Shown piece after piece: positions 16,801 through 40,707 of a DNA stretch of 64,000 bases. A program made the translations under genes and the position numbers. Origin of the DNA: Ostreococcus lucimarinus (lineage: Eukaryota); assembly GCA_000092065.1 (NCBI GenBank), contig CP000584.1; one strand, written 5' to 3'. Every line of letters starts with the position of its first letter. The first letter of the stretch is position 1. The notes beneath the pieces were generated by a model that was not told the DNA's origin, made no database searches, and was given only the letters and a program-made list of their open reading frames with translations.

Positions 16801-19800
16801 CTGCTCGACGGTATACGCGCCGCGGTTCGAACGGCGATCGAATCGAAACAATTGCAGACATCACCGCATCTAGCGTTGCTCGATAAGTCTTGGTATCAAG
16901 ATATCTTGCGTCCGCTCTTGGCGCAGTGGACGAGCATTTGGCTGCGTGCTCATGGCGCGTTGCGTGGCATGTCAGAGGCACTCATTATGGCGTATCTTCT
17001 GCGGGGACCGGGCGCGGCTGAAGCAAAAGCGCAGCTGAATCGTGAATGTGAAGACGAGGCTGTGAAGATGACCAACCTCGCGCGAGATTGGCTTTGCTCT
17101 CTGTTGCCTCACATGCTCGCGAAGATTAATCGCGTAACGTTTGGTTTGTTACAGCCCGCGGACGTATCGCTACTCGAAGAAGTGACGGGATCGCGTCTGC
17201 CGAAAACCCGTAGACTTTTGGCAGTTCCTTTCGTGGGTAAGGATATTCCGAGTCGAACGAATGAGTTCTCACATCCAGATGTCGTTCTCGGGTTGACAAT
17301 TTGCGCATACCGCCTCGAGGGTTTGCGCCGTGCCGACTTCAAGCAAATGCTTCGAATCTTAATGGAAGAGTACGATAACGAGGCCGGTCCTCCTCAGAAG
17401 CGACCGGCTGCTCGTAGGTGGGCGGACTGGGTGCGTACGACTGGGAAGCGAGTGCGAGGTGAAGCGCGCGCTGAGGCAGCGCTCGCCGCAAGACGACGCG
17501 GCGTTTCGCAGCAAACCGGAACTACAAATGTCGGGGATACCCGCGGATTGGCGTGGCTCGAAGACGACACCGCAGGTCTGCAAGACGACGAGGTTTGGCC
17601 TTTGCAGCTTATCGATCTCAGAGATCACGATCAGGTTGAAGAAATCTACCAACTTCTGCGAAGGACGCCGCCGTGTATCGAGTATTATCTCGACGAATTT
17701 GTCTTCCCTGAAACGGCGCAGCATCAAGATTTGAAACTGAGCGCCACTGGCCAAGAACTCGGTGGTGATGTGTTGTTCCCCAACCGACTCGGTTTTAGCG
17801 GTACCCCGAGCGACTTACTGCCGCTCGAGCTCGGTGCTCCGCGATACGAATCCGGCTCTGACGCCAAGATGCTGGCATACTTGACGGATCCGGAAACCGC
17901 AGCGACGATGCCTTTGGACGTTGATTGGAACGTGCAGACTCTCCTCACCCGTATTGCGACGGTAGACCCACCGATACGTGCGCTCATCGATACGGGTGCG
18001 CTTGTCACGGGCATGTCCAACCTCGATGTCTCGAGATTCTTACTCGAGAAGGGTCTGAAATGGGCTGAAGGATGTGTGTTCCTCGACGAAAATGATCGAC
18101 AGATGATTCTCATGCGCAAAGGATGGGAAGTCATTCCTCTTCAACGCGTCGCCGCAATGCCTTTGACGAAACGATTTACGTTCTATGATCAAGTTCATAC
18201 GACCGGTATGGACATCAAACAGGCCGCGGCGTCGCAGGCAGCCATCACCCTCGGTAAAGACATGTGTCTTCGCGATTATGCGCAGGGTGCTTGGCGCATG
18301 CGCGGTTTGGGCAAGGGTCAGACGCTAAAGGTGATTGTGATTCCGGAGGTTGCGAGACTCATCTCGCACGAAGTTGCCAAAGGAGGTGGACAGATCCCAT
18401 CGACGCGCGATGCTGAACTCGCGACAATGTCGGCCGAAGCGGTCGAGAAGCGTAAGTTACGAGACATCACGGCTTGGCTCGTCGTGAACAGTATGCGAAG
18501 TGAGAATATTCAAGCCGGTTTGCTCGCAGAGCAACGCGCGGCGAATATCTGGAGAAAGCATTCATACAGGAAGCTTGTGTCATCGCCCACTGCACCGGGA
18601 ACACCAAAGGCGGAGGGTATGATTCACGCGTGCCTTGACGTCTTCCGAGATCGCGTGTCGTACGTCGTGGCGAATGTCATTCCTCAAAGTGTATCGCCTT
18701 CAGAGAAGTTAGCGAGGAGCGTACAGCAGTTCGGACATTTGCTCGACGATAGTCCTCGCGCAAAAGAGCAATTACGATTGATCGTGAACGACGTGAAGCA
18801 AATGGAGGAGACGACGAATGCGGCGTTGAAGCGGATTCGCGCTGGCACACACATGGCTCCAGATGCGGCGGAGTCCGGTGATCAAGGTTTGGCTGGTGGT
18901 TTGGAGCACGCCTTGGACCTCGAGCAAGTTCAAGAGAATGAGGAAGAACAAGAAAATGAGCAAGAACAAGAGCAAGAGAAGGAAGAAGAACGTGAGGAAG
19001 AAATCATCGAGGAAGCCCCAGATGGCTTGAAGTACGTGCGCGACGACGAGAAACAGCCGTCGTGGAGTTACGAGTCTTTGTGCAAAAGTCCAAGCTCAAT
19101 GGCTCAAGGTTTCTACCCACTCAAAACGTTCAAGATACATAAAGGTGTCGGCAAGACTACAGCACCTTTGGATTTCCCGGAGTATCTATATCTATCGAAA
19201 AATTACTTCCGTGAAGGATGGGCGCTCAACGGCCATCGACGCTTGAAGAATCTCACCGTCGTGCTGGACTGGGTACCGGATAGCAGCGCTTTATCGACCG
19301 ACGCCGGTGGTAGCGTCGCGGCGGGTACGTTCACAGCAGACCAGGAGTCAGCGCTACGAACTGCGTTCGATATGTTTGACTCTTCCGGAAACGGTCGTTT
19401 GACAGAGTCCGACCTCCGAGAGGTTTTGCGTGAGATCGACGCTTGCGTAGAAGACGATGAGCTTCGTCTTCAACAGTTGGCGCGTGAGGTTGCTGCAGAA
19501 TCACGCACGTTCAATACCGGGGGTAAGTCATCTGGGACGTCTTTCGAGGAGTTAAAGCGCGTCCTTCGTTCGAAGAACATTTACTCATTGCAACGTGGGC
19601 GATACTACGTCGCGTTGTCTCTGGCTGAAGCCGAGTCGCTGCGCGTTGTCATGCATCTCACGAAGGGTAGTAAAGCGAGTGACGGCAAACTGATTCCATC
19701 CAAACTCACCGAAGCTGCGTTGCGAATCGGTGGCGGTACGCTCATCGATAACACGTCGAGATTTACGCCCGCACAGGTGTTTCAAGGTGCGACGGCCGAG

Positions 19801-21766: not shown

Positions 21767-24352
21767 TTAGTTGTGGAACATCGGCGAAAGTGGCGCGCGG
21801 TCTCGGCTTCGGCCAGCCGACGAGCGCCTGGGAGATGGCTCGTACGCCTTCGAGCCTCTCATAGGATTCGGCGAATATTGCGCGAATTGCGCCTTGGCTT
21901 CGGCGATGCCCTCACTCAAATCGTGGCTCGCTCGAAGGATTTCGTCCTGCGCCGCCATCTCGCGCGCAGCTGCGCTGTGGAACGTCGTCCCACCAACGGC
22001 TGCCTTCGCGGCGGCTTGCGTTGCAGGAGAGTTACCGCTCGATGCCTCGAGCTGCGAGTGGATCGATGCAAACTTGGACTGTATGTGCTCCATTTGCTCG
22101 AGCTCGCTCTCAAGCTTGTGACGACGAGACTCGAGCGCGCTTCGGACGCTCTTGACGTCGAAGACGGAGTCGAGACTAATCTCAAACGCGTCTTCCATCT
22201 CGTTGCGCAAAAAACTATTGAAGTCGTTCAGCAGAGGCATAAGGAAGAAGCAGTTGAACTTGAGCTCGACCGACTGAACGATGTGTGCGCGAATACCGGA
22301 GAAGATTTGACGAACCAACATGTCAACAATATCCACCGTGACCGACTTCATCGTTCTGTTCCAGAGCGTGTTTTCAACCAAATCCGTGAGCTTGCAGTTC
22401 TTCAACTCCTTATCCGACATCACGAGCTCGCCACCGGAGCGGCGCTTTTCGTCTTTCGCGTCATGTTCGCCTTCATGCGGCGCCAAGACGTTTCGTAGAC
22501 CAGCCTTGTTTCCAGAGTGCAACGACCAAGTGACGAACTGAGTCGTAGACTTGAGGTCTTCGTGGCACTTTTCTTGGCATTCCTTGACTCGGTCGTCCAC
22601 GAATCGAGCGAAAGTGCCGCCAATCTTCTTCAAGAAGACTTCGTGCCCGTTCAAAATTCGTCCCTCCTTTTGCAAAAGGTACATGGCCACAGGCAAAGTT
22701 CGTCGCGCGATGTGAGACAGACGGAAGCCGAGTTGGTGCACGAAGGGCTCAAACGTTTCTCGAGCCCGAGCGATGGCAATGACGCACGCAGTGCGCGTGT
22801 AATTGACACCGTTGTGGATTTCATCAACACCGCACGAGTTGACGATATCTTCTCGGCTCACCGGCGGGCACTCCACGGCGTTGACGATTAAGCGGAACTC
22901 TTCGAGGGCTCGATGGTATTGCGCGCCACCGAAGAGCCGCATATCGGCGTTTGGCACGGGTTGCTGCGGCATGCAAGGTCGACCGTCCGCGTTCACGAAC
23001 GCGCCGCCACGAATGTGCTCGTGCGCGAGAGACTCGCCAAAGATGCGCGGCGGCGCGGCGAGCGTACCTCGGACAATCTCCGGAATCTTTTCCAAAAAGT
23101 GCTGATAAAAGGCGCGACCCTTCTCCTTGAGGTGATCTTGGTTCAAGTCCGCCAACTCTTGCACGGTTTCAGAGAGCTTGCTCGTGGCGATGCGATGCTC
23201 GCGTTCGAGCACGGGAACAATCGTGGGAACGTTCTCCAAGTATCGCTGCTGCAACAATCGCTCGAGGAAAAATCGCAGTTGGCTCACGCCGATGCGGCCG
23301 CGCTCGTGCGAAGACAGGTGACGATCCAAGCGGCGCTCGAGTTCGGCGATATCGTGTTGCTCGCGCTCGAGAACGGCCTCCCGATAGTGATCGTTCGAGC
23401 GATACTTCGAATCTCGTGCGAGTCCAACGCGGCCAGAGGGCACGGAGGAAAAGAACGGACCACCACCCAAGACGGTCGGCTCGAGTAGACGCGCCGGCGG
23501 GTGCAAGAACATTTCGACGTCTTGCGAGTGAGAAAATTGCGGGATTCGCGTGTCGAACTTGGTGCTCACCACGACGGTACGTCGCAGCTCGGGATCGGCT
23601 TCGAGAACCAATCGCCGAGTGGTGGCGTTGGACCAATCTGAGCTGTCTTCCAGGCACAAGATGATGTAGTCTCGCTGGTGCATCTTTTGCTTGACTAAAT
23701 CCTCCACCAAGCGCGCAGACTGTTGCAAACCAGAAAACTTTCGGCCCGGCGCGGCGGAGATCAAACCGGGGGTATCGATGATGGTGAGGTTCGGGCAATA
23801 CTTATACTCGATCTTCACGACGATGTCCTTCGCCCAAAACCCGTTCTCGTTTTCCAATCGTCTGTTTTCGCCTTCAATGTGCGCCTGCAACTCGGGAAGC
23901 GAGAGCTCGTCCTCGCGCCCAAGATTGTCGTCCTTCATCAAAAAGCACCTCGGCTCCACGGCGGAAGGGTTGTACTTCATGTTGATCGCGATTGGACGCC
24001 TCGTCTTCGTTCCACCACCGACGTGGTTGAACTGGAACCCCATCAACGCCTCCACGAGCGCCGACTTTCCATCCGTCTGGTGTCCGACGACGAGAATCGC
24101 CGGCGAATCAAACGGCTTATCAAACTCTTGCGCCATCGTGTGCAACTGCGAATACGCCTCGTACAACCGCTCGTTCGCCTTGTTAAAGAACCGCTTGGGA
24201 GATGCCCGTCCATCGTCTTGACTCGAATCCACCGCTTGTCCGTGCGCCCAATACGCCGGCTTCGCCGCCGTCCCCGGCGCCGCGCGTCGCTCCGTCTCCC
24301 GCTCGTACCTCGCACCCCCGTACGAAGATTCGCGCGCCTGCGTGTGAACCAC
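21767..24352 (-). CDS. ARC5: Dynamin-related protein 5B (ARC5, plastid-division dynamin). The N-terminus is unresolved.
   Basis: 861-aa ORF. Strong similarity across the GTPase domain and beyond to Arabidopsis ARC5 as recalled: LYEAYSQLHTMAQEFDKPFDSPAILVVGHQTDGKSALVEALMGFQFNHVGGGTKTRRPI, then CPNLTIIDTPGLI, ILCLEDSSDWSNATTRRLV, VVSTKFDTRIPQF, MRLFGGAQYHRALEEFR and VFLKK. Codon 1 of the ORF is GTG. The first in-frame ATG (..HTMAQEF) falls inside the conserved N-terminal block, so either a non-AUG start or an upstream 5' exon (acceptor ..CACGCAG|GCG at about 24337) is implied. Confidence 0.85.
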   Translation of the reverse strand: MVHTQARESSYGGARYERETERRAAPGTAAKPAYWAHGQAVDSSQDDGRASPKRFFNKANERLYEAYSQLHTMAQEFDKPFDSPAILVVGHQTDGKSALVEALMGFQFNHVGGGTKTRRPIAINMKYNPSAVEPRCFLMKDDNLGREDELSLPELQAHIEGENRRLENENGFWAKDIVVKIEYKYCPNLTIIDTPGLISAAPGRKFSGLQQSARLVEDLVKQKMHQRDYIILCLEDSSDWSNATTRRLVLEADPELRRTVVVSTKFDTRIPQFSHSQDVEMFLHPPARLLEPTVLGGGPFFSSVPSGRVGLARDSKYRSNDHYREAVLEREQHDIAELERRLDRHLSSHERGRIGVSQLRFFLERLLQQRYLENVPTIVPVLEREHRIATSKLSETVQELADLNQDHLKEKGRAFYQHFLEKIPEIVRGTLAAPPRIFGESLAHEHIRGGAFVNADGRPCMPQQPVPNADMRLFGGAQYHRALEEFRLIVNAVECPPVSREDIVNSCGVDEIHNGVNYTRTACVIAIARARETFEPFVHQLGFRLSHIARRTLPVAMYLLQKEGRILNGHEVFLKKIGGTFARFVDDRVKECQEKCHEDLKSTTQFVTWSLHSGNKAGLRNVLAPHEGEHDAKDEKRRSGGELVMSDKELKNCKLTDLVENTLWNRTMKSVTVDIVDMLVRQIFSGIRAHIVQSVELKFNCFFLMPLLNDFNSFLRNEMEDAFEISLDSVFDVKSVRSALESRRHKLESELEQMEHIQSKFASIHSQLEASSGNSPATQAAAKAAVGGTTFHSAAAREMAAQDEILRASHDLSEGIAEAKAQFAQYSPNPMRGSKAYEPSPRRSSAGRSRDRAPLSPMFHN

Positions 24353-24981: not shown

Positions 24982-26724
24982 ATGTTCGCGGTGCAGCGCG
25001 CGCCCGCGCGCGCGCTCGCGAAGAGCGCGCGCGGCGACAGGTGCGCGGCGCGGCGCGGCGCAGCGCGCGACGCGCGACGCGCGAACGCGAGACGCGAGAC
25101 GCGACGATCGAACGGCGAGGTCAAAAGCGTCGCGCGACGGGACGGCGACGGCGCGGCGACGACGCGCGAGGCGAGGGGCGAAGAAAAAACGACGAGCGAG
25201 GACTGACGAAAGGCGACTCGACGACGCAGACGCGCGAGAAGCGCGCGACGAAGCGCGGTGGTGCGCGCGGCGGAGAAGTCGTACGACTACGACTTGGTGA
25301 TCATCGGCGCGGGCGTCGGCGGACACGGCGCGGCGATGCACGCGGTGTCGCGAGGGATGAAGACGGCGATCATCGAGGGCGATGTGATCGGAGGGACGTG
25401 TGTGAATCGAGGGTGCGTGCCGTCGAAGGCGCTGCTCGCGGCGTCTGGACGCGTGCGGGAGATGCGCAACGCGGAGCACTTGCGCTCGCTCGGTATCCAG
25501 TTGGATCCGAGCGCGGTGAGCTTTGATCGTCAAGGCATCGCCGATCACGCCACGAATTTGGCGTCGACGATCCGGGGTAACTTGGAACGTTCGTTGATCG
25601 GGCTTGGGGTTGAAATTTTGACCGGGGCGGCGAAGATTGAGGACAACCACACAGTTTCCTACGGCGCGCCGGGCACGGTCACCGGGGGGAGAGTGACGGC
25701 GAAGAACATCATCATCGCCACCGGTTCCACGCCGTTCGTGCCGCCGGGCATCGAAGTCGACCACAAGACGGTGTTCACCTCCGATGCGGGTTTGAAGCTC
25801 GACTGGGTCCCGGAATGGGTCGCCATAATCGGTTCCGGTTACATCGGTTTGGAATTCTCCGACGTGTACACCGCGCTCGGCTCCGACGTCACCTTCATCG
25901 AAGCCATGCCTAACATCATGCCGGGTTTCGACAAGGAGATCGCTAAGATGGCGGAACGTATTTTGATTACCCCGCGTAACATCGACTACGTCACCAACGT
26001 GTTGGCGACCAAGGTCACGCCGGGTATCCCGGGCGAAAAGCCGGTGACGATTGAGCTCACCGACTTCAAGACGAAGGAAGTCGTCGACACTATGGAAGTC
26101 GACGCCGTCTTGGTTGCCACCGGTCGTTCTCCGTACACCGCTGGCTTGAACGTCGAAAGCATCGGCGTCGAGCTCCAACGCGGCTTTATCCCGGTCAACG
26201 AAAAGATGCAAGTGTTGGACAAGGATGGCAAGGTTGTCGAGGGCATGTGGTGCATCGGCGACGCCAATGGTAAGATGATGTTGGCGCACGCGGCGAGCGC
26301 CCAGGGTATTAGCGCGATCGAGAACATGCACGGTAACGAGCACGTCCTCAACCACCTCTCCGTTCCGGCCGCATGCTTCACTCACCCCGAAGTGTCCTTC
26401 GTCGGTTTGACTGAGGAGCAGGCTCGCGCCAAGGGTGAGGAGGAAGGCTTCGAAGTCGCCGTCCGCAAGACGTCGTTCAAGGCCAACTCCAAGGCGCTCG
26501 CTGAGAAGGAAGGTGAGGGTATGGCTAAGTTGATTTACAACCCGAAGACGAACGAGATCTTGGGTATGTGGATCATGGGCTTGCACGCCGCGGATTTGAT
26601 TCACGAAGCGTCCAACGCCATCTCCACAGGCGCCACTTTGGACGACTTGAAGTTCACCGTGCACGCCCACCCGACGCTTTCCGAAGTCATCGAATCTCTC
26701 TTGCGAGGCTCGGACGGGCACTAA
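24982..26724 (+). CDS. Dihydrolipoamide dehydrogenase (E3; plastid or cyanobacterial-type LPD). Proposed exons: 24982..25040 (presequence) and 25230..26724. The core ORF 25258..26724 is certain.
   Basis: Core: FAD/NAD Rossmann motif [17 protein letters not shown], redox disulfide [17 protein letters not shown]-terminal HAHPTLSE. The track's first codon at 25258 is GTG. ATG 24982 ([19 protein letters not shown], transit-peptide-like) is in the same frame but separated by a TGA. A 189-nt GT..AG intron (donor GACAG|GTGCGCGG at 25041, acceptor CGACGCAG| at 25229) would join it in frame. This is inference only. Confidence 0.8.
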
Positions 26725-27983: not shown

Positions 27984-30053
27984 TCAGAGGAAAAAGGATT
28001 GAAGAAAACCGCGAACGTCTGGAATCGAGCGCTCGCGCGTCGTGGAGTCGTCGGAATCGAGGGAAATGTCCGTGGTCTCGCGCGCGCGAGCCCAGGCGTA
28101 GAGCTTGCGATCGAGCCAATCGGCCTCCTGGGCGTCGGCGTGGGCGCGAACGACGGCGTCGACGGCGGCGGCTTCGGCGCGGGAGTAATCGCTCACGTGA
28201 CGCATGGACGCCTCGAGCGATGCGGTGGTGGCTTCGCTCGGGACGCTGAAAAACGCCGTGACGGCGTGAACCACCGCTTTGGGGTGCTCCAAGGTGAAGA
28301 ACCAGTCGAAGTTGCGCAGGAGGAGGTCGGCGGTGGTCGAGAAAACATCCGGCAAAGACGCGGTTTCGCTCGTTAAACGCGCGGGTAGAATGGACGTCGC
28401 GTCCTTCGTACCCGCGTTTGCGAGCAGAAAACGGGCCTGTGCGTTCGATGCGAGAGGCTCGGATGCATTTCTCGCGACGACGTCGCTCATATCGCGAAGA
28501 AGAGGTTCTCGCATCACCGTGAACGACTTCAGCTCGCATCGACGAAGCTTGGCGCGTTTGCGCAGCGACGCCAGCCTTTCCTCCATACCTAACAACCCCG
28601 ATCGACCGACGTGATGAGCGATGACGTGATTTCCGGGGTTGAGAACGCGATCTGTCACGCGTTTCCAGTGCTCATCTTCGTCGAGCGCTTGTAATTGTGC
28701 GAGATCCGATCCCTCCTTCGCGTACTTTGAGCGCTCGAATCGTTGAACGTCTACGCCGAGACGCGAAAAGAAGGTAAGCAACGTTCCGCCGCCCGTGCGA
28801 GGAATGTGGTAAAAGTACAGAATCTTGCACGATCTTTGGCCACCCAGCAGTGGTGTAGCGGCGTCTTCACTGCTATTGCTGTAGTAACGCCGACGCAAAA
28901 TATTCAGCCCCTCGAGTGACGCCTTACTTGAAAGCGACGACGCAACGCCGATCTCACGAGTCGCCCGTGAGTCGCCTTGACCGTTTTGGAAAACATGATC
29001 GCCGTAATCCGCGATAAAATCGGCGTTGCTAATCAAGTCATCCCTCCACATTGCCTCGACGCGCTGCAAATGCTCGTGACGACTCTTCTTCGGCGTGCCC
29101 CCAGGTGTTGGGCCTTTCTCCTTGACGTGACGAGTCGCCTGCGTCGTGGAAGAACGCTCCTTCACCGGTCGATCCGCCTTCGACTTTCCGCGCATCATCA
29201 TTTTTCTATGTCCCACCGCGGCCGTGTCCGCCTCTTGTCTCTCCTTCAAAGCTGCGCGCGCTCGGCGCAAGGACCGCAACAACTTTTCCGTCCCGCCGAC
29301 GTCGCCGTCGTCGTCGCGACCCCCACCCAAATGCGCCACTCGCATCACGCCCGCTTCATCATCTTTGACGTACTCCATGACATCTTCCAAGAACTCCGTG
29401 CCGTTCTCGCCGCCGATATCGTAAACGCGCTGCGGCCGTCCCTCGAGCTCGCTTCTAATCGCGTTGCCGATCGCCCGAGCGCGAAAACTATCAACCAGCT
29501 CCATCGTCCCTCTCGCCTCGCTCGCGCCGACGCCGAGCGACGTGAGCGGCGAACGCGCGCTCGACGTCCGCGCCGATCGCGCCGGCGCGCCGTCGCCGCG
29601 TTCGCGCGCACCGTCGAGAACCATCGCGTAACACCCAAGCGTTAGGAGCACCAAACCACCGACCGAGCGAAACGTCGCGCTCGTCGCGCGCGCGCGCGTC
29701 GCGCGCGCGTCGTCATCGCGCGCGTCGTCGCTTCGCGCCAAGAGCGCGGTGTCGTCGCGCGGCGCGCCGCCGGCGGCGACGACCGCCATGACGCGTCGCC
29801 GAGTGACGCCAGTGCGCGCCGACCGCGGCGGCGCGTCGACGTCGAGCGGCGGCGAGCGCGCGTCGACGTCGCGAGCGCGTTGCGTTCGAGCGGTCGACGA
29901 CGCCATGGCGTCGACGGCGCGCGTGCGGCGTCGCGCGAGCGTCATCTTGACGATGACGCTCGCGCTGATGACTGTCCGCGCGGACGCGAAATCGCAAATC
30001 ACGCGCACGCTGCGCATGCGAACCGCGGACGCGCGCGCGCTGACGAGAGACAC
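27984..30053 (-). CDS. Type II membrane sulfotransferase-like protein (Golgi Sulfotransfer_2-like); probable start Met at 29789
   Basis: 689-aa ORF with one predicted N-terminal TM helix (VGGLVLLTLGCYAMVL). It carries a 5'-PSB-like motif ILYFYHIPRTGGGTL, as in Golgi carbohydrate sulfotransferases (hIPKtGGT). The first ~88 codons overlap the PAM start region on the other strand and are likely not translated. Confidence 0.5.
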   Translation of the reverse strand: MSLVSARASAVRMRSVRVICDFASARTVISASVIVKMTLARRRTRAVDAMASSTARTQRARDVDARSPPLDVDAPPRSARTGVTRRRVMAVVAAGGAPRDDTALLARSDDARDDDARATRARATSATFRSVGGLVLLTLGCYAMVLDGARERGDGAPARSARTSSARSPLTSLGVGASEARGTMELVDSFRARAIGNAIRSELEGRPQRVYDIGGENGTEFLEDVMEYVKDDEAGVMRVAHLGGGRDDDGDVGGTEKLLRSLRRARAALKERQEADTAAVGHRKMMMRGKSKADRPVKERSSTTQATRHVKEKGPTPGGTPKKSRHEHLQRVEAMWRDDLISNADFIADYGDHVFQNGQGDSRATREIGVASSLSSKASLEGLNILRRRYYSNSSEDAATPLLGGQRSCKILYFYHIPRTGGGTLLTFFSRLGVDVQRFERSKYAKEGSDLAQLQALDEDEHWKRVTDRVLNPGNHVIAHHVGRSGLLGMEERLASLRKRAKLRRCELKSFTVMREPLLRDMSDVVARNASEPLASNAQARFLLANAGTKDATSILPARLTSETASLPDVFSTTADLLLRNFDWFFTLEHPKAVVHAVTAFFSVPSEATTASLEASMRHVSDYSRAEAAAVDAVVRAHADAQEADWLDRKLYAWARARETTDISLDSDDSTTRERSIPDVRGFLQSFFL

Positions 30054-32229
30054 GTATTTGTACGTCCCGATTCGAGTCCCCGAAGGCGCGTGGCACGTGG
30101 TGAAGTACGAGCCGAGCGCGAAGCAGGAGATCGTCCATCACATGCTCCTGTACGGGTGCCGAGACGCGGCGGCGAGCGGATTGGATAAGGTGGTCGGTGG
30201 GATGTACAGCTCTGGTTCGCACGTCGCGACGTGCGGAGATGGAACGTCGCAGGCGCTGTTGTACGGATGGGGAAAGAACGCGCCGCCGATGCACATGCCT
30301 GAAGACGTCGGATTTCGCGTCGGCGAAGGCGCGTTTCGAGTGTTGGTGCTGGAGGTGCACTATTTGGAAAAGCAGAGCGCGGGCGCGGTGGGGAAGAGCG
30401 GGCTGGACGTCATCTTGGCCAGTGGGCGGCCGAAGATGAGCGCGTCGGTGTTGGCGTGGGCGAGTTATTTCTCGTTGCAGCCGGGAAAGAAGGACGAGCT
30501 CGTAGCGGCGACGTGCGCGTACGAGCAATCGCGAGAGCTCAAGGCGTTTGGGTTCCGCGTGCACACGCACGATCGTGGGACGATCGTGCGTTTAGATAGA
30601 CTAGTGGGTGGGGATCCGGGTAAGCCCGTGCGCGTGCTCGAGCGCGATCCGCAGTTACCGCAAGAGTTTGAGTTGCTGTCAGAAAAGGGGACGTCGTTGA
30701 CGGTGTCAGCGGGCGACGCTTTGCGGGTGACGTGTAGTTTTGACACGACCAACGAGACCGCGGTCGTGAATGCGGGATTTGGGGCGTCGCACGAGATGTG
30801 TAACATGTACGTCATGGTGTACAGCGATGAGCCGCAATATCTGTCGTGCCTCGGATCGAACGACGGCTCGATGGGGAAATTCGCGCTCGAAGTCGGCGAC
30901 GCAAAGCAACCGATCGAGGACATGGATGCGGTGCGCGCGCGCGTGGTGCCGTCGCGCGTGAAATGGCCGGCACTCGGTGGGATCGGTGGAATTCAAGCAA
31001 CGAGCGATGGTGAGTACGTTTGGATGACGAACCGCGGACCAAACGTGTGGGAAGCCGGCTCCTCGTTGAGCGAGGCAAAGACCATCCAAGAGGACGCCAT
31101 AGTGCGCATGAACCTGTTCACCGGGGCGATCGATAGAGCTTTTGGCGCAAACGCGCACGTGATGCCCCACGGTATACGCATCGCTCCCGATGGGTCTATT
31201 TGGGTCACCGACACCGCGCTTCACCAAGTGTTTCAGTACTCGCCCGACTCTGGCGAGCGAGTGCGCGCTTTCGGACAAGCGGGCGTGAAACGTGGGGGCG
31301 GTGAGGGATTCTGTGCCCCAGCGGACGTTTTAGTTTTAGAAGACGGTTCATTCATCGTCGCAGACGGATATGGACTGTGTCCGAACAGAATCGCTCGCTT
31401 CGGCGCCGACGGCGCGTACGCGGGCGATTTCGACCTCGGCTCCGCCGGCAAAGTGAGCGTGGCGCACCAGCTCGCGTACTCTCAAGTTCGTAGAGAAATC
31501 GCCTTGGCCGACCGCGAAAACTCTCGAGTCATTCTGTTCGACTACGCAGGTAAGTTCAAGCAGGCGGTCGATTTGTCCGAGCATGGATTCGCGTACGGGT
31601 TAGCGTGGATGGGGAGTTCTCTCGAAGGCTTAGGTGGATACTACGCCTTGTGTTGGACCCGCGACGCGCCGAATCCCAAAACATCTCTCGTGCGCATCTT
31701 CTGGACCGGCGACAATGCGCCCGTGACGCACGTTTGGGACTTGAACGCCATGGGCGTCATTTTCAAATCGCCGCACGTACTCGCCGCGCAGAGCAGCAAG
31801 AACGGCGGTACCGCGTCTTGGGGCGCGGGATTGACTCTACACATCGGCTCCACGACGTCGACGATCGGCAAAAATTACCAGCGCCTTTGGCTCGGGTTAA
31901 ACGAGCCGCGCGCGCTCGAACCACCGTCGCGCTCGGCCTCCGCGGCGCGAGGCGTCGCGCCTCCGCGCCTCCGCGCGCCCGCCGTCCTCATCGCCCATCC
32001 CATCGCCGCCATCCTCTGCGCCGGTCTCGCCGTGATCGCCCTCGCGCACGCCCGTCGTCACCGCGCTCCACCGGCGCCCTCCCGGCCGTGGCCGCGCGAC
32101 GTGGAATCCGTCGCGTTTCGAGACTTTGCCGCCGACGACGACTCCGACGACGACGACTCCGACGCGCCGCCGCGCGATTCCGCCCCCATCCCGCCCCACC
32201 GCCGCGGCTTAAAACTCGCAAAGGATTAA
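29905..32229 (+). CDS. PAM: Peptidylglycine alpha-amidating monooxygenase, bifunctional: N-terminal PHM (copper monooxygenase) plus PAL (NHL-repeat lyase), with a C-terminal TM anchor
   Basis: Signal-peptide-like start MASTARVRRRASVILTMTLALMTV (ATG 29905; ORF opens at 29749 with an Arg-rich leader). PHM copper sites: HHMLLYGC, then H-x-H in FRVHTHDRG and the CuM Met in HEMCNMYVMVY. PAL NHL repeats: IAPDGSIWVTDTALHQVFQY, FCAPADVLVLEDGSFIVADGYGLCPNRIARF, ENSRVILFDYAG. C-terminal TM: VLIAHPIAAILCAGLAVIALA, followed by an acidic cytosolic tail. Confidence 0.85.
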   Translation: MASTARVRRRASVILTMTLALMTVRADAKSQITRTLRMRTADARALTRDTYLYVPIRVPEGAWHVVKYEPSAKQEIVHHMLLYGCRDAAASGLDKVVGGMYSSGSHVATCGDGTSQALLYGWGKNAPPMHMPEDVGFRVGEGAFRVLVLEVHYLEKQSAGAVGKSGLDVILASGRPKMSASVLAWASYFSLQPGKKDELVAATCAYEQSRELKAFGFRVHTHDRGTIVRLDRLVGGDPGKPVRVLERDPQLPQEFELLSEKGTSLTVSAGDALRVTCSFDTTNETAVVNAGFGASHEMCNMYVMVYSDEPQYLSCLGSNDGSMGKFALEVGDAKQPIEDMDAVRARVVPSRVKWPALGGIGGIQATSDGEYVWMTNRGPNVWEAGSSLSEAKTIQEDAIVRMNLFTGAIDRAFGANAHVMPHGIRIAPDGSIWVTDTALHQVFQYSPDSGERVRAFGQAGVKRGGGEGFCAPADVLVLEDGSFIVADGYGLCPNRIARFGADGAYAGDFDLGSAGKVSVAHQLAYSQVRREIALADRENSRVILFDYAGKFKQAVDLSEHGFAYGLAWMGSSLEGLGGYYALCWTRDAPNPKTSLVRIFWTGDNAPVTHVWDLNAMGVIFKSPHVLAAQSSKNGGTASWGAGLTLHIGSTTSTIGKNYQRLWLGLNEPRALEPPSRSASAARGVAPPRLRAPAVLIAHPIAAILCAGLAVIALAHARRHRAPPAPSRPWPRDVESVAFRDFAADDDSDDDDSDAPPRDSAPIPPHRRGLKLAKD

Positions 32230-32350: not shown

Positions 32351-33418
32351 ATGTCCGTCGGTCGCGACGCCTTGACGTCACACCGCGCCTCGACCGCTCA
32401 CGACATGTCCGCGTTCACGATCTCCGCCGCCGCCGCCCGCGTCAACGCCGCCCCGGCGTTCGCCAACAAGGCCTCCAAGGTACGCCTCGTTCGCCTCGAC
32501 GCGCCGACGCGACGCGCGTCGCGCGCCGACGCGCGCGCGCCGTCGCGAACGTCGACGGCGCAGCCCTAACCCCGAAGGACCGGCGGCGACGCGCGCGGAC
32601 CGCGCGACGCGCGCGGACGCGCGCGATGGCCGCCGCGACGCGCGCGCGCGATGGGATAAAATACGCACGACGCATTCGCGGCGCGTCGGGCGACCGACGC
32701 GTCGCGCGGAGACGCGACGACGGGAATCCGACGACTGACCCCGCACCACGATGTCGCGCGCGCAGCCGACGTCCGTTCGCCCGACCGCGGCGAAGCGCAC
32801 GTCCGTCGTCCTCGCGTCGGCGAAGACGGATGCGATCATCGAAGAGATGAAGACGCTCACGGTACGTGCGGCGCGCGCGATCGCGCGAGGACGCGGCGTG
32901 GGAGGCGCGATGATGATGACGCGACGCGCGGACGACCCTACGCGATAAGGGTCTGGGGAAACCCTGAAAACGGAGCTCGCGCGGACGCTCGGGAAGGCGC
33001 GTGGAACGCGGGAAAGATGGCGCGATGCGACGCGGAACGAAGACTGACGATAAAATCGTGATCGTTCTCTCGCGCGTAGCTCCTTGAAGCGTCCGAGCTC
33101 GTCGCTCAAATCGAAGAAGTGTTCGGCGTCGACGCCTCCGCTCCGGCGGGCGGCATGATGATGGCCGCCGGCCCGGCTGCCGGTGGCGAAGCCGCCGAAG
33201 AAAAGACCGAGTTCGACCTTGTCATTGACAACGTTGACGCCGATAAGCGCATCGCGATCATTAAGGTTGTGCGTGGCCTCACCGACTTGGGCTTGAAGGA
33301 AGCGAAGGATGCCGTCACCAACGTGCCGTTCACCATCCTCGCGGGCAAGACGAAGGGTGAAGTCGAAGAAGCCAAGAAGGCGCTCGAAGAAGGCGGTGCC
33401 AAGTGCTCCATCAAGTAA
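32351..33418 (+). CDS. Organellar ribosomal protein bL12 (L7/L12). Three exons: 32351..32479, 32766..32861, 33080..33418.
   Basis: Exon 1 is a presequence (MSVGRD...[25 protein letters not shown]), followed by a GTACGC donor. Exon 2 (acceptor CGCAG|) encodes [32 protein letters not shown], followed by a GTACGT donor. Exon 3 (acceptor CGCGTAG|) continues [17 protein letters not shown]...[43 protein letters not shown]...[12 protein letters not shown], which is the bL12 N- and C-terminal domains. All junctions preserve frame. The product is 187 aa. Confidence 0.75.
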
Positions 33419-33564: not shown

Positions 33565-34424
33565 CTAATTCGCACCGCCGTCGACCTCGTCCTCGAGCTC
33601 GTATCTCAACTCCTCGATTGCGTCGTTGATTTCCCCAAACGCGCGCTCGAGGGTCTGCGTCGCCTCGCCGACGGCGTTCGAGTACTCCTCCTCCGTCGGC
33701 TCGGGACCATCCTTCGCGCACGCGCATCCGATCGCACACGCCGCCGGATCGCAATCCTCCGTGCGCGCCCATGACGGTTTCAAATTCATAGTCGTCTCCG
33801 CCGCCGCGCGTTCGCCGCCTCGTTGCCACGACCACGCCTCTCTTGCCGCGGCTCTTCGCAGCACTTGCAGCGCCGCCGTCATCTCCAATCGCACGCGTTC
33901 GTTCTGTTGAATCACGCGCACGAGCATCGCCGCTGACGTGCGATCGAGTCGTTTCAATCCCTCTTCTATGCCTAAAATCTGCATCAACGAACGAGCGCTC
34001 GCGCGGTCATCGTCAGTCGCTCGAGTCGAGTCGCGCCGCGGCGACGCCGGCGCCGTCCCGCTCGCGCCGCGGGGCGAGGTGACCTCCCAGTCGCGCGCGT
34101 GCGCCGCACCTTTTCGCTGTAACCCCGCATGTCGTCCGTCGTGCGCTTGGTTTCGAGCACGAACGCGTCCTCGGACGTCGTCCCGGCGAGCATCGACGCG
34201 TACGCGCCGTTCCACCGCTCGTAGCTCGAGCTCCTCGCGCGTTGCTGCTCGAAGAAAGACTCCAGCAGCGCGCGCGCCGAACCCGAGGCGGGCTCAATCG
34301 GGGCGGAGAACACGCGCCCGGTGGCGGTCATCGGCGACGCGGCGTGCGTCGACATGACGGAGGCGCGCGCGTGTGTGGGGGCTCGGACGGCTTTGCGAGC
34401 GAGGAGCGAGCGAGTCAATAACAT
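33565..34424 (-). CDS. Hypothetical protein, probably two exons (overlapping ORFs 33984..34424 and 33565..34215 in different frames)
   Basis: The N-terminal ORF (..MTATGRVFSAPIEPASGSARALLESFFEQQRARSSSYERWNGAYASMLAGTTSEDAFVLETKRTTDDMRGYSEK) and the C-terminal ORF (..LMQILGIEEGLKRLDRTSAAMLVRVIQQNERVRLEMTAALQVLRR...EEEYSNAVGEATQTLERAFGEINDAIEELRYELEDE) both have protein-like composition. The junction was not resolved and I recognise no family. Confidence 0.4.
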
Positions 34425-34496: not shown

Positions 34497-35384
34497 TTAC
34501 TTCTTCACGCGCTTGCTGCACGTCGTGCCCGCCTCCTTGCATTTGGAACACGCGCTACGACCGCCGGCGGGGACCGCAAAGTGACCGGCCTCGTGCGTCT
34601 CGAGCACCGTGCGCAACTCGATGACGTCCTTGTGCGCACAGTCGTAGTAAATGAACCCACTGCCTTCCTTTTGTAACCACGCCACCTCGAGGGGGCACTT
34701 CGCGTTCGACTGTCGCACTTTCGTCACCTCGCCGTACCACGTCTCGTTCCCTTCGCCGCGAACCTCGACCTCCATCCCGACCGCGAAGTCCGACGTCTTC
34801 AACGGATCGTTCGCGCTTCGCTTCGGTTTCACCGTTTTCTTCGCCTTGACCTTCTTCGCCTTCGCCTTCGCCTTCGCCTTCGCCTTCGTCTTCGTCTTCG
34901 TCGTCGCCGTCGCCTTCGTCGTCGCCTTCGCCGTCTTCTTCTTCGTCCTTTCCACCGGCGTCGCCGGCGCGCTGCCCGTGATCGCCGTCAACTGCGCCGC
35001 GATCTTCGCGATCTCCGCCCTCCTCGCCGCCGTCTCGACCTCGCGCCGCGCCTCCGCCTCCTCGTCGCGTCGCGTCGCGCTCGCGAGCATCCGTCGCAAC
35101 GTCTCCAATTTCGCCTCGTCCGCCATCGTCGCGTCGTTCGCGCGCGCGCGCGCGCGAGATCGACGACGACGCGAGGTCGTCGTCGCGCGCGTCGTCGCCG
35201 CGTCGTCGACCGCGTCGTCGCCCGCGCGCGCGTCGAGTCGCGACGGGCGCCGCGCGATGCCGTCGCGCCGCACGATGCCGCGCGCGGCGCCGTCGTCGTC
35301 GTCGAGCGCGTCGTCGTCGAGCGACGATGGCGACGACGACGGCGTCGACGACACGCTGGCCGCGATGTCCGACGACGCGATCAA
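34497..35384 (-). CDS. Lysine-rich protein (A/K/T repeat, histone-H1-like tail) with a C-terminal Tudor/agenet-like beta domain. The probable start is Met at about 35126 (MADEAKLETLRR).
   Basis: KKKTAKATTKATATTKTKTKAKAKAKAKAKKVKAKK is followed by FAVGMEVEVRGEGNETWYGEVTKVRQSNAKCPLEVAWLQKEGSGFIYYDCAHKDVIELR and a Cys-rich end. The first ~85 codons are Ser/Asp-rich and overlap the 5' region of the divergent gene. Confidence 0.5.
   Translation of the reverse strand: MIASSDIAASVSSTPSSSPSSLDDDALDDDDGAARGIVRRDGIARRPSRLDARAGDDAVDDAATTRATTTSRRRRSRARARANDATMADEAKLETLRRMLASATRRDEEAEARREVETAARRAEIAKIAAQLTAITGSAPATPVERTKKKTAKATTKATATTKTKTKAKAKAKAKAKKVKAKKTVKPKRSANDPLKTSDFAVGMEVEVRGEGNETWYGEVTKVRQSNAKCPLEVAWLQKEGSGFIYYDCAHKDVIELRTVLETHEAGHFAVPAGGRSACSKCKEAGTTCSKRVKK
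34851..34940. repeat. (GCCTTC)n/(GTCTTC)n coding microsatellite (encodes AKAKAK... on the minus strand)
   Basis: cttcgccttcgccttcgccttcgccttcgccttcgtcttcgtcttcgtcgtcgcc within the lysine-rich gene. Confidence 0.9.
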
Positions 35385-36885
35385 CGCGCGCGTCGCGCCG
35401 TCGTTTTACGCGCTGACGCGAAGCATCGACCGCGAGGACCGACGCGCGTTTCATCGCGTGCACTCGATCGCGCGCGACGCCGCGTTCGTGGAGGCGCAGG
35501 GCGAGCGGTTTTTGCGCGATTCGACGCGCGCGGCGTTCGCGAACGCGCGCGCGGGAGCGTGGTACGCGGGGGGGGGGAGGTTCGCGTACGAGACGTGCTA
35601 CTTTAAGAGCACCGACGGACACAATAATAACTGGACGATGTCGGCGACGAGGTTGAATCGACGCGTGGCGATGGCGTGCGCGGCGGGGAGGGGAGGGATG
35701 ATCGTGGACGCGACGCGGAGCGCGGTGAAACGGTTTCCGGATGCGCTGTCGAAGACGGTGCCGATTTGGTGCGACGCGTTGAACAGGGCGTGCGCGAGGG
35801 CGAAGCGGGACGCGGGAGCGGCGGACGCGGACGATCGCGCGTGGTTCGAGGGACCGCATTTGCCGGAGTGGGTGGCGGAACACGAGCGGAACAGCATACG
35901 CGCGCTCGTGCCGGAGTTTGAGGCGAGTTTGAAGTCTACGGGATGGGACGTCGGCGAGCTCGCGGCGATTTTGGAAAAGCCGTTTCGATGCGTGTGGGTG
36001 AGTCGGGGCGAAGACGGCGCCGAACTCTCGCTCGAGTCGCTCGCCGAGGCGGACTTTACTCCGCTTATACTCGTCACGGCGAGCGCGCCGCTGCATTGGC
36101 GCGGTGAGCGGCGGGTCGGGGTGAACGGGCACAGTTTCGCGTACGTTCCGGGAGCCGCGGACGACGAGGAGAGTTGGTCGCGTGGACTCACGGCTGACAT
36201 GTTTCACGAACACCGCGATGCTTTGCTCCACGCTTCTGAGCGCGACATTGACAACATCATCGCGCGCATCGTCGACGGTCGAATCGGGAAGCCGCGCGAG
36301 TTGGATCCTCGGTCTCGACTCGCGCCGCGAGGGTGTGCGCCGATGGACAGCCGCGCAGCGGAGGAGGCGAATCGTTCGAACGGTGCGATTTGCGCCGGCG
36401 GCATGCGAGAGCTTTCGCCAGAATGCGGCATCGGTCGATGCTCGATCGCGTCGTTCGCCGTGTACGATCGCGCTGACATGGAAAAACTCGCGGACGCATT
36501 TCTTCACGTCGGGGAAACCGTCGTGGATCCGAGCAAGGCGTGCTCGACTGCGTTTCTGCACGTTCCAGCGAGAAAAGCGAAAGTGAGCCGAACAGATCTC
36601 ATGAAAGCACTGCCTCGATGCATCGACTTCGCTCGTCGGACGTTCGAAACGCCAGGCGCACGTCTGTGCGTCACGTGCGACGACGGCGTCGACCACTCTG
36701 TCGCCGTCGCCGTGGCGCTTTGCATCGCCATGGGACCGTCGCCGTGTTCAAACGCGGACTTAGACAAAGACGACGTGCGCAAACAACTAGCGGCGGTATC
36801 GAAAACCCATCCCGACGCCAGACCGACGCGCGCGTCGCTCAAACAAGTGTACAATTTCTTTCTTCATAGCGAGGTAGCCGATTAG
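35267..36885 (+). CDS. Putative initiator-tRNA 2'-O-ribosylphosphate transferase (Rit1)-like protein. Family assignment is tentative.
   Basis: Track ORF 34651..36885. The portion upstream of about 35267 is antisense to the lysine-rich gene. N-terminal block SFYALTRSIDREDRRAFHRVHSIARDAAFV resembles the Rit1 SI.NRL.SI..D..FV motif. There is a central PLILVTAS block and a C-terminal phosphatase-like CVTCDDGVDHSVAVAVALC. Start is ATG at 35267 (MPSRRTMPRAAP) or 35366 (MSDDAINARV). Confidence 0.5.
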
Positions 36886-37818: not shown

Positions 37819-40665
37819 CTACAATTTTACGTCTAATCGAGGGATTCGGGTGGTGATTGCCGACGAGCGCGCGTCGTCGAGCGCGATTGGGTCGTCCGCG
37901 ATGCGCTCGAGCGCTGTTAAGGCGCGAGCTTTGCAATCAGCGGCGGCGGCGACGGCGAAGGAAGCCGCGGCGCGAACGTCGACGTCGCAGTCGGCGCGAT
38001 GGCGCCGCGCGGCGATGGCGGTGAAATGCTCTAAAGCGGTGGACAGAGGGGAGTTTTCGGCGTATGCGATGGCGACGGGGGTGTCTCGGAGAGAAGTGGC
38101 GACGAGGGCACCGGCGACGAGGGCGGAACGGCGGAGATGGGGTTGGTCGGAGTCTGCCAACGCGGGAGTGACGGCGAATTCAAGCACCGCGCGGCCGATC
38201 AACGGTCCATCGGTCGCGTTCTTGGCGTGCTTGGCGCACTGACCGAGTGTGTAGAGAATATGTCCGTTCACCATGGCGTCCAGGCCATCGGGGTTGTATT
38301 CTGGCGCGGACTGACGCTCGAGCCTTTGCGCCGCCGCGCGCAAGAGCGGCGCGACGAAGCACTCGCCTATGAGATGACTTCGCGTCGGCGCCGATGTCGC
38401 ACCTTTCGCTTGCATCTCCATGGATTTCGGCGCAAACCTTCGCTCGATACCCACGCGAGCAGTCGAACGAGTCGACGCCGAAGCATCGAGCAGGTGCTCG
38501 GCTTTTGACGGCGACGCGAGCTCCGTCATCGCCATGTCCAACGCGCTCAGCGTGTCCATAACTTGGGACGCGTCGCATTTCTCCGACAACGCGTGGTCGA
38601 TAATTGTTGGGCCTGCGAGACCAGGGGTCACCGTGAGCACCGAAGCTAAGCCTTGGCGCCGCGCGCGGTCGAGTGGGTCGGAGTCCGGCGTGGGCGGTTG
38701 CGCGTGCAAAATGGTGACAGCGAGATCCGCGGCGCACGACGCCAATTCGTGCGGCTGGCGCATGACGATATCGGAAACTGCGTGCACCGCACCTTCAGCT
38801 GCGTCCGCAATATCGATATCGGTCTGCCGAGTCGACGCATCGCCCGAACGCGCCTGCCTCAAGGCGCCGATGCACTCTCGTAAAGTTTGCGGCTTCGGCA
38901 GCGACGCGATTCGCGCTTCAGTCAAACTCGCTGGATCACGAGAACGAAGCGTCGCGTCGTCATCACTATCCATATCATACGGTACGAGCTCGTCATCGGA
39001 ATAGTCATCGCTATCGGAGGCATCCGAGTCGCTCTCGTCGCGGCGAAGGCTCCACATATCGACAACTTCGTCCGGGTCTTCGACTTTAATCTGAAACCCA
39101 GACGAACCGGTTAGATTGACGTTGGCGGCGATGGATTCTTTTTCATCGTCGCCGCCGCCGCCGCCGTCGTCATCATTGCAGACGACGAAGACGTCGTCTT
39201 GAACGATCGACTCTATGGTCTGTTCCCATTCCGATTCCTCGTCCGATGACGCGTCGACGTCGTCGCCGTCATCGACGAGTCGCAAAGGCTTGCTCGCGTC
39301 CATCTTCAGCGAAAGTTCCAAGGCGACTTTGCTCGCGTGTCTGCGCGGACGCAATGATGGCGAATCGAGACGCGCGCTCACGCCTTTCAATAACATTTGC
39401 GTCGGCTTTCCTCGCATAGCGTCCCACTCTTCGCTCGGCAACGCCGCAAGAATTGCTCGAACGCTCGACGTGAGCGTCCGTTGTAGCTCGACGGACGCCT
39501 CACGCACGAAACCTTCCCCGGACCAAGTATCCAAGAGTGCGAATATATTCGCATCGCTCGCCGCTTTGACGCGCGTGGCGTCGGCGCCTCGACGAATGGG
39601 TCGCAGAATCGTCAACCGTAAGAGCGCCGGCAGCGCGGCGCGCGGCGCGCTCTTTCGCAATAGCAACGTTTCGCACAGCGCGAATCGCGTGGCTTCGCAC
39701 GCCCAATACCTATCGCGTAGCAACACGCGCAAAACTAAATCTAGAGTTCGCCAGCTGCAGTTCACGCTCGACTCGTGACCGTCGCATTCGGCGAAGAGTT
39801 CTGAAATCCATCGACACGCGGCGTGCGCGTCGCTAACCTCATTCATCATGGTCGTCGCCCAGGCCAACGACGCCGGCACTTCATCGCCCTCGACGATCGC
39901 GCGTATCGCATCCACACCGAGCTCGCGCACGCGCGGCGCGAGCTCGCGCAGCGTGGCTCGGGCCACCGCGCGCGCGGCGCCGCGGCGACACATTCTACTC
40001 GCCGTCGCCGCCGCGCTCGCCGGCGCGTCCTCGCCGGCGTTCAACACCTGCCGAGCCAACTCCGCCTCGTACGCCTCTACACTGCGAAACACTGGTATAT
40101 CAAACCGCCGATCGAGCCGATCGAACGCTCGCAGCGCGACGTCCAGCGTCTCTTTCGCCGCGCGCGCGTCCGCCGTCGTCCCCGCCGCCATCCGCGTCAA
40201 CCTTCCCACGACCCCTCGTCGCACGAGCTCGACGTAATACGTCACCGCGCTCCGCACGATCGCGTCATCATCGCTTCCCGCGCGCGTCGCGCCCCGCGTC
40301 GTCGCCATCGCGTCGACGCACGCGCGCGCCGCGCCCGCGCCCGCGCGTTCGTCCTCATCCGCCTCCTCCCACGAGAACCACGCGTCGACGCACGCGCGCC
40401 GATCGTCCTCGCGCATGCTCTCGTACCACAATCCGCGTCCGCATCGCAGCGCGCACGCGCACGCGTCCTCGTGCGCGCGAACGTCCGCGTCGACGACGTC
40501 CTCGTCGACGACGTTTTCGTCTTCGTTCGCGCGTTCCGACCGCTCGCGCGCGCGCGCGCGCGCGAACGCCCGTCGCAGCGCCCGCGACGCGTCGACGAAC
40601 GCGTCTCGCGCGCGCGCTTCGACGCACGCGTCGAGCGCGCGCTCGAGCGCGCCCGAGCGCGCCAT
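37819..40665 (-). CDS. Large helical-repeat (ARM/HEAT-like) protein with an internal acidic DSDDE cluster; possibly TELO2 (Tel2)-like. The start is uncertain.
   Basis: Track ORF 37819..41289 (1156 aa). The part above about 40665 is antisense to the RRM gene and its KKAKK repeat (read as FFSFFAFF). The body has an alpha-solenoid-like composition. The acidic linker DESDSDASDSDDYSDDELVPYDMDSDDD resembles the CK2-phosphorylated DpSDD(D/E) patch of Tel2. The C-terminal roughly 380 aa is conserved-looking (..LGQCAKHAKNATDGPLIGRAVLEF...). Family assignment is low confidence. Confidence 0.5.
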   Translation of the reverse strand: MARSGALERALDACVEARARDAFVDASRALRRAFARARARERSERANEDENVVDEDVVDADVRAHEDACACALRCGRGLWYESMREDDRRACVDAWFSWEEADEDERAGAGAARACVDAMATTRGATRAGSDDDAIVRSAVTYYVELVRRGVVGRLTRMAAGTTADARAAKETLDVALRAFDRLDRRFDIPVFRSVEAYEAELARQVLNAGEDAPASAAATASRMCRRGAARAVARATLRELAPRVRELGVDAIRAIVEGDEVPASLAWATTMMNEVSDAHAACRWISELFAECDGHESSVNCSWRTLDLVLRVLLRDRYWACEATRFALCETLLLRKSAPRAALPALLRLTILRPIRRGADATRVKAASDANIFALLDTWSGEGFVREASVELQRTLTSSVRAILAALPSEEWDAMRGKPTQMLLKGVSARLDSPSLRPRRHASKVALELSLKMDASKPLRLVDDGDDVDASSDEESEWEQTIESIVQDDVFVVCNDDDGGGGGDDEKESIAANVNLTGSSGFQIKVEDPDEVVDMWSLRRDESDSDASDSDDYSDDELVPYDMDSDDDATLRSRDPASLTEARIASLPKPQTLRECIGALRQARSGDASTRQTDIDIADAAEGAVHAVSDIVMRQPHELASCAADLAVTILHAQPPTPDSDPLDRARRQGLASVLTVTPGLAGPTIIDHALSEKCDASQVMDTLSALDMAMTELASPSKAEHLLDASASTRSTARVGIERRFAPKSMEMQAKGATSAPTRSHLIGECFVAPLLRAAAQRLERQSAPEYNPDGLDAMVNGHILYTLGQCAKHAKNATDGPLIGRAVLEFAVTPALADSDQPHLRRSALVAGALVATSLRDTPVAIAYAENSPLSTALEHFTAIAARRHRADCDVDVRAAASFAVAAAADCKARALTALERIADDPIALDDARSSAITTRIPRLDVKL

Positions 40666-40707
40666 GAAGTGTCGCGAAGTTCGTTCGGCGTCGCGACAAC
40701 GCGACGC

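Follow-up and report, generated by a model that had tools for sequence, protein, structure and literature searches.

Does a green alga that has no flagellum keep a complete peptide-amidating enzyme, and how far does that enzyme resemble its animal counterpart? The question is raised by a locus in a 64,000-nucleotide stretch of the Ostreococcus lucimarinus nuclear genome (contig CP000584.1, assembly GCA_000092065.1; hereafter the window), where an initial annotation, made from the DNA alone, had placed a bifunctional, membrane-anchored peptidylglycine alpha-amidating monooxygenase (PAM). To our knowledge, PAM is the only enzyme that amidates peptide C-termini, and in Chlamydomonas and in animals it is linked with cilia. 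That PAM should be intact in an alga that has neither cilia nor the intraflagellar transport (IFT) machinery therefore speaks for an older role, independent of cilia. RefSeq and UniProt already list the gene by name, and both its presence and this implication are published. Attenborough et al. 2012, as cited in PMC5461114, described PAM-like genes in green algae, in keeping with the annotation's remark that such reports exist. According to a 2019 review, O. lucimarinus possesses PAM but neither cilia nor IFT machinery, and the review argues for cilium-independent roles (PMC6529398). The annotation's suggestion that an alga lacking a flagellum has kept amidation is reasonable, and it stands in print for the same species. 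Since the implication has been drawn before, the locus adds no new knowledge beyond a variant calcium site in the lyase half of the enzyme.

Very probably, the locus encodes the bifunctional PAM of O. lucimarinus, a type I membrane protein. The open reading frame (ORF) runs, just as annotated, from an ATG at 29905 to a TAA ending at 32229 (2325 nucleotides, 774 codons) with no interruption in its translation, and an exact-sequence look-up finds its product identical to ABO95657.1, XP_001417364.1 and UniProt A4RWP3 (UniRef100_A4RWP3) of O. lucimarinus, under the name "peptidyl-glycine alpha-amidating monooxygenase-like protein". The deposited 774-residue protein starts at the same ATG as the annotated model, and this agreement confirms a gene call without introns, as had been claimed. 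The G+C content by codon position (0.63, 0.50 and 0.75) shows, in the excess of the third position over the second, the typical asymmetry of a real coding region in GC-rich DNA. The mechanically called ORF is longer (29749-32229, plus strand, 826 residues counted from a GTG, with ATG 29905 in frame) and contains a second in-frame ATG at 29788, upstream of the PAM start. A start at 29788 was rejected, because 39 non-hydrophobic residues would then precede the signal peptide; moreover, the database protein and the homologues do not begin before 29905. A pseudogene was likewise rejected, as the ORF is intact and its catalytic positions are invariant, and so was a phage or viral origin, since megablast against a phage collection gave no match.

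The N-terminal half of the protein is a copper monooxygenase (PHM). Two Pfam families cover it: Cu2_monooxygen (PF01082) at residues 47-156 (expectation value E=4e-17; 63.0 bits against a gathering cut-off of 30) and Cu2_monoox_C (PF03712) at residues 188-316 (E=3e-21; 75.9 bits against a cut-off of 23). The best match among solved structures is full-length rat PAM (5wm0_A, E=1.6e-54), aligned over 44-315 in PHM and over 346-547 in the lyase half (PAL); with a profile built from 16 homologues, the same match reaches E=1.6e-119. The Pfam and rat PAM values lie well outside what chance would give. Since this chain follows standard rat PAM numbering, residue correspondences can be taken straight from the alignments. 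Residue by residue, the CuH ligands H78, H79 and H152 correspond to rat H107, H108 and H172, and the CuM ligands H220, H222 and M298 to rat H242, H244 and M314, in the motifs VHHM (H78, H79), VHY (H152), HTH (H220, H222) and EMC (M298). The two copper sites that had been recognised from an HHM...H triad and an H-x-H...M pattern are thus both present, and careful alignment reveals the loss of none of their residues. Three disulfide pairs are also conserved (C85/C110, C204/C315 and C277/C299). Dopamine beta-hydroxylase (DBH; 4ZEL) has the same two-domain copper type II monooxygenase fold as the PHM half, but its sequence match (E=2.5e-11) is far weaker than the match to PHM, and the domain content is opposite: DBH carries a DOMON domain but lacks a PAL propeller, and in the Ostreococcus protein the reverse is true. 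As a separate observation, a short segment just after the CuM histidines (residues 223-230, DRGTIVRL; 30571..30594) reads GTIVRLDRL in the window protein and GT(R/N/K)VWLDRL in all close homologues and in P0001, the representative of the window protein's own 99%-identical environmental cluster; the differences are R to I and W to R.

The predicted structure accounts for both halves of the chain. In an AlphaFold2 model derived from the alignment of 16 sequences, the mean predicted local distance difference test score (pLDDT) is 79.3 and the predicted template-modelling score 0.77; both catalytic domains score about 90, whereas the tip of the N-terminus, the juxtamembrane stalk and the tail fall below 50. 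When the model was compared with the PDB by Foldseek, rat PHM entries ranked first (E=4e-24; template-modelling (TM) score 0.75-0.78, target-normalised), and DBH and TRIM/NHL propellers were clearly more distant than rat PHM and PAL. For the monooxygenase fold, the contrast is between a TM score of 0.77 for rat PHM and one of 0.38 (E=1.6e-13) for DBH. Residues 346-664 form six blades of strands at a pLDDT of about 90 and match rat PAL (3fvz) with E=2.3e-20 and a target-normalised TM score of 0.76; the 355 aligned columns, set against the 329 residues of that chain, indicate a complete propeller and not a fragment. At the sequence level, Pfam recognises one NHL repeat above its gathering score (residues 420-445, E=4e-10). 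The annotation's full NHL-propeller PAL domain is therefore well founded.

The catalytic residues of PAL could be located in the same way. We take rat Tyr654 to be catalytic and Arg706 and Arg533 to serve PAL function; in the alignment, these correspond to Y489, R537 and R377, and two of the zinc histidines, rat H585 and H690, align directly to H422 and H521. The third zinc histidine, H624, needed more care. Because the propeller is repetitive, HMMER paired rat blade 6 (MPHD) with blade 2 of the query (MPHG), a pairing that we rejected on the basis of a restricted local alignment and an invariant Pro-His column. Limited to residues 560-680, the local alignment sets rat FDMPHDIVA against FKSPHVLAA, so that H786 equals H624 and D787 equals V625. 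The Pro-His column is invariant across all 16 homologues, two of which (P0015 and the Chlorella vulgaris protein P0016) read PHD like the rat. Given the weak alignment of the last blades, it is this column and the fold match that carry the equivalence of H624 and H786. The disulfide C470/C492 is kept as well. No catalytic Tyr, Arg or His has been lost, since H422, H521, H624, Tyr489, Arg537 and Arg377 all align and are invariant, and a degenerate PAL was rejected on these invariant positions and the intact ORF.

Conservation among relatives points to selection on the chemistry. Twelve catalytic positions (the six copper ligands, the three zinc histidines, Tyr489, Arg537 and Arg377) are invariant in the 16 algal homologues, although these share only 30-66% identity with the query, and catalysis thus appears to be under purifying selection. 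A profile search of 1.84 billion representative proteins gave 1668 matches at E<=1e-30. From these, a sample of 138 sequences was aligned, consisting of the top profile matches of at most 1400 residues together with the members of the 16-sequence alignment (A1); all twelve positions are kept in 52 of them. Marine metagenomes contain many close relatives (55-70% identity), and the 90% cluster of the query has 143 members. The metagenomic homologues P0002-P0014 (about 37-70% identical) would be proteins of other prasinophyte-type picoalgae. They share the architecture of the O. lucimarinus protein, including the transmembrane helix, and differ from it only by ordinary divergence and in how long the stalk and the tail are.

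One accessory feature of PAL differs between these proteins and the rat enzyme. Chufan and colleagues, in their rat PAL structure of 2009 (3FVZ), are said to have found calcium coordinated by a pair of backbone carbonyls together with the side chain of Asp787, which we take to be the one side-chain ligand of this structural ion. The calcium of rat PAL lies in the central cavity of the propeller (PMC10303134). In the window protein, the position next to the third zinc histidine is Val625 (codon 31777..31779). The annotation had pointed to the zinc and calcium ligands of PAL as the residues to compare: the zinc histidines, the catalytic Tyr and the Arg are all kept, whereas the side-chain ligand of calcium is not. 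The same position is V, M, G or C in all 14 close relatives, P0002-P0014 among them, and Asp in P0015 and in the Chlorella vulgaris protein, which is the sole named chlorophyte in the set and about 30% identical to the query. Among the 52 bifunctional homologues with every catalytic residue, 32 have Asp and 20 a non-acidic residue, so that Asp787 looks like a variable accessory feature and not a defining one. Judging from these alignments, all close relatives lack it, the same loss is seen again elsewhere, and it can go together with a strictly retained catalytic apparatus. The replacement of the calcium Asp throughout the close algal relatives, beside invariant catalytic residues, is, as far as sequence comparison can tell, a small addition to the published record.

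Several observations weigh against an ordinary, fully functional PAM. Besides Val625, the rat disulfides C81-C126 (PHM) and C702-C713 (PAL) are absent, and a two-residue Gly-Leu insert follows the catalytic Tyr489, Ostreococcus-type sequences having Gly-Leu or Gly-Glu between this Tyr and the next Cys. Any of these differences could change stability or kinetics. Furthermore, the last two PAL blades align weakly to the rat sequence (local score 30), the signal peptide looks like one as judged by hydropathy alone, and no report of activity or substrates for an Ostreococcus PAM was found in the literature searched. Taken at their strongest, the changes in PAL could mean that this half is impaired or different after loss of the structural calcium site, and that only the PHM step matters, with dealkylation being spontaneous or taking another route. 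Such an explanation would fit the absence of the Asp from all 14 close relatives, the missing C702-C713 pair and the insert, and the PAL step can indeed run spontaneously above neutral pH (PMC6529398). We nevertheless consider it improbable. Zinc histidines, Tyr489, Arg537 and Arg377 that stay invariant at so low an overall identity are hard to explain without a working PAL, the 20 Asp-less proteins among the 52 are otherwise intact and bifunctional, so that the loss appears to be tolerated repeatedly, and the propeller is modelled with confidence. In addition, the other two calcium ligands are backbone carbonyls, so the site itself may survive.

With a working PAL preferred, a broader proposal can be made, though only tentatively, as we regard it as possible and somewhat doubtful: Ostreococcus-type PAMs may be a distinct PAL variant that dispenses with the calcium Asp and two animal disulfides, keeps all catalytic residues, is fully competent, and amidates secreted peptides yet to be found in a minimal picoeukaryote with neither cilium nor wall. 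If this were true, Ostreococcus would offer a very simple system in which to find ancestral, cilium-independent PAM substrates.

The remaining parts of the chain are those of a membrane protein of the secretory pathway. The N-terminus reads MASTARVRRRA-SVILTMTLALMTV-RA/DA, with a basic n-region (RVRRR) and a 13-residue hydrophobic core, SVILTMTLALMTV, and its Kyte-Doolittle hydropathy is 2.1-2.5 (windows of 9-13 residues, positions 12-24). Cleavage is likely after VRA, in the small-residue motif VRA/DA. The signal peptide of the annotation is in this sense upheld as a signal-like N-terminus. Between the catalytic domains and in the stalk, a scan of the protein sequence found no dibasic sites, and thus there is no hint that a convertase would release PHM and PAL as soluble forms. 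The sole 19-residue Kyte-Doolittle windows above 1.6 in the protein start at 689-700, correspond to AVLIAHPIAAILCAGLAVIALAHA and peak at 2.4, and the model has a helix at residues 700-717; this one strong hydrophobic peak agrees with the single C-terminal transmembrane segment that had been proposed. From hydropathy and family membership, we infer a type I membrane protein whose catalytic domains would be luminal. The tail behind the helix is probably disordered, in view of its pLDDT. It had been described as acidic, a description that holds for the run DDDSDDDDSD and less so for the tail as a whole, where 13 D/E face 11 K/R and 2 His and the net charge is barely acidic; "acidic cluster" is hence the more accurate term. 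At the very end, KLAKD (32212..32226) is conserved as KLAKD or KLARD in P0002-P0005, the closest of the metagenomic homologues having the same KLAKD C-terminus, whereas the rest of the tail diverges. The motif may be a sorting or retrieval signal, and trafficking would be directed by the tail, which combines the acidic Ser/Asp cluster with this conserved end.

This tail also bears on whether the enzyme is kept for its chemistry at all. It is conceivable that the protein serves mainly a non-catalytic or non-peptide role, in copper or oxygen sensing or, via its tail, in membrane or cytoskeleton trafficking, and that there are no amidated signalling peptides. Ostreococcus has neither cilia nor known peptide signalling, the C-terminal motif is conserved, and PAM roles in actin organisation and trafficking have been described (PMC6529398). 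However, the strict conservation of metal ligands and catalytic residues speaks for selection on the chemistry, a scaffold alone would not preserve twelve catalytic positions, and nothing in the window bears on sensing. We therefore hold this explanation to be very unlikely, more so than an impaired PAL.

How close, then, is the algal enzyme to those already characterised? Rat and human PAM (PDB 1PHM/5WM0, 3FVZ) show the same order of signal peptide, PHM, PAL, one transmembrane helix and disordered cytosolic tail, and the animal neuroendocrine architecture named in the initial annotation is accordingly supported by domain order and hydropathy: PHM followed by PAL in one chain with a signal-like N-terminus, one membrane helix and a tail. 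At an identity to rat PAM of about 22-29%, the Ostreococcus protein shares the six copper ligands, the three zinc histidines, the catalytic Tyr, both Arg residues, three PHM disulfides and one PAL disulfide, and the folds agree at TM scores of about 0.76-0.77. Unlike rat PAM, and in addition to the changes in PAL and the disulfides discussed above, it has a short linker between PHM and PAL with neither dibasic sites nor an exon-16-like region, and its tail is far shorter than that of the rat and unrelated to it in sequence. Closer to hand, Chlamydomonas reinhardtii PAM (CrPAM) is reported to be active and membrane-tethered, with properties that resemble rat PAM's (PMC5461114). CrPAM and the Ostreococcus protein are both membrane-tethered, bifunctional green-algal PAMs, the activity of the latter being predicted. 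The difference lies in the cell: CrPAM occurs in cilia, whose formation requires it, whereas cilia and IFT machinery are both lacking in Ostreococcus (PMC6529398).

By homology with the rat and Chlamydomonas enzymes, PHM would bind two coppers, at H78/H79/H152 and at H220/H222/M298, and, with O2 and ascorbate, would hydroxylate a C-terminal glycine at its alpha-carbon. The PAL propeller, with zinc at H422/H521/H624, Tyr489 as the base and Arg537 in support, would then cleave the N-C-alpha bond to give the amidated product and glyoxylate, in the sequence of PHM and PAL chemistry summarised in a review (PMC6529398). In an alga without a cilium, the role of PAM must be cilium-independent; by analogy, it would most likely be the modification of secreted or luminal peptides. 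Substrates in Ostreococcus presumably exist, and finding them would be a real advance.

Table 1. Coordinates of PAM, its parts and neighbouring genes in the window (residue numbers refer to the PAM protein)
Feature	Position	Strand	Evidence
Complete single-exon coding sequence, bifunctional PAM, 774 residues + stop	29905..32229	+	Translation; database identity
Signal-peptide-like N-terminus, residues 1-26	29905..29982	+	Hydropathy; homologues with equivalent hydrophobic N-termini
PHM catalytic core, ~residues 44-315	30034..30849	+	Pfam; rat PAM alignment; Foldseek
Short PHM-PAL linker, ~residues 316-345	30850..30939	+	No dibasic site; pLDDT 76-84
PAL six-bladed NHL beta-propeller, ~residues 346-664	30940..31896	+	Alignments; invariant columns; model; Foldseek
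Disordered Pro/Ala/Arg-rich juxtamembrane stalk, ~residues 665-691	31897..31977	+	pLDDT <50 for 676-700
Single transmembrane helix, ~residues 692-716, AVLIAHPIAAILCAGLAVIALAHA	31978..32052	+	Hydropathy; model helix
Cytosolic tail, 58 residues, acidic cluster DDDSDDDDSD, C-terminal KLAKD	32053..32226	+	Composition; homologues
Divergent upstream ORF, up to 689 residues	27984..30053	-	Mechanical ORF
Ribosomal protein L7/L12 gene, downstream neighbour	32405..33418	+	C-terminal domain 33119..33418, E=1.6e-20 (Pfam)
REX1-B-like small protein	33984..34424	-	Pfam scan of flanking ORFs
Rit1 initiator-tRNA phosphoribosyl transferase	34651..36885	+	Pfam scan of flanking ORFs
TELO2 homologue	37819..41289	-	Pfam scan of flanking ORFs
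Pyridine nucleotide-disulphide oxidoreductase (dihydrolipoamide dehydrogenase/glutathione reductase type)	25258..26724	+	Pfam scan of flanking ORFs
Dynamin-family GTPase	21767..24352	-	Pfam scan of flanking ORFs
Uninterrupted 4600-residue ORF with PH, DUF3638, DUF3645, several EF-hand and Vps62-like regions	7870..21672	+	Pfam scan

The flanking genes (Table 1) give, in a Pfam scan, no sign of a functional cluster with PAM, and no tRNA genes were found in the window. The PAM ATG lies within a CCATGG palindrome (around 29904..29907) that also supplies an in-frame ATG to the divergent upstream ORF on the minus strand, so that both ORFs, as called mechanically, overlap in a head-to-head arrangement; the true start of the minus-strand ORF is probably further in. 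This ORF has no Pfam match, even at E<=5, and contains a stretch, YFYHIPRTGGGTL, that we take to resemble the motif by which sulfotransferases bind 3'-phosphoadenosine 5'-phosphosulfate. Spurious Arg-rich ORFs are abundant in the GC-rich DNA of the window, and the 4600-residue ORF is very large for so compact a genome. On the downstream side, the N-terminus of the L7/L12 gene, near 32405, resembles an organelle transit peptide; it falls in a different ORF piece from the L12 domain, and the two may be separated by an intron or a frame change. Among the metagenomic PAM homologues, P0006 is apparently a mis-called read-through fusion into the equivalent neighbour, its C-terminal extension resembling the L7/L12 transit peptide.

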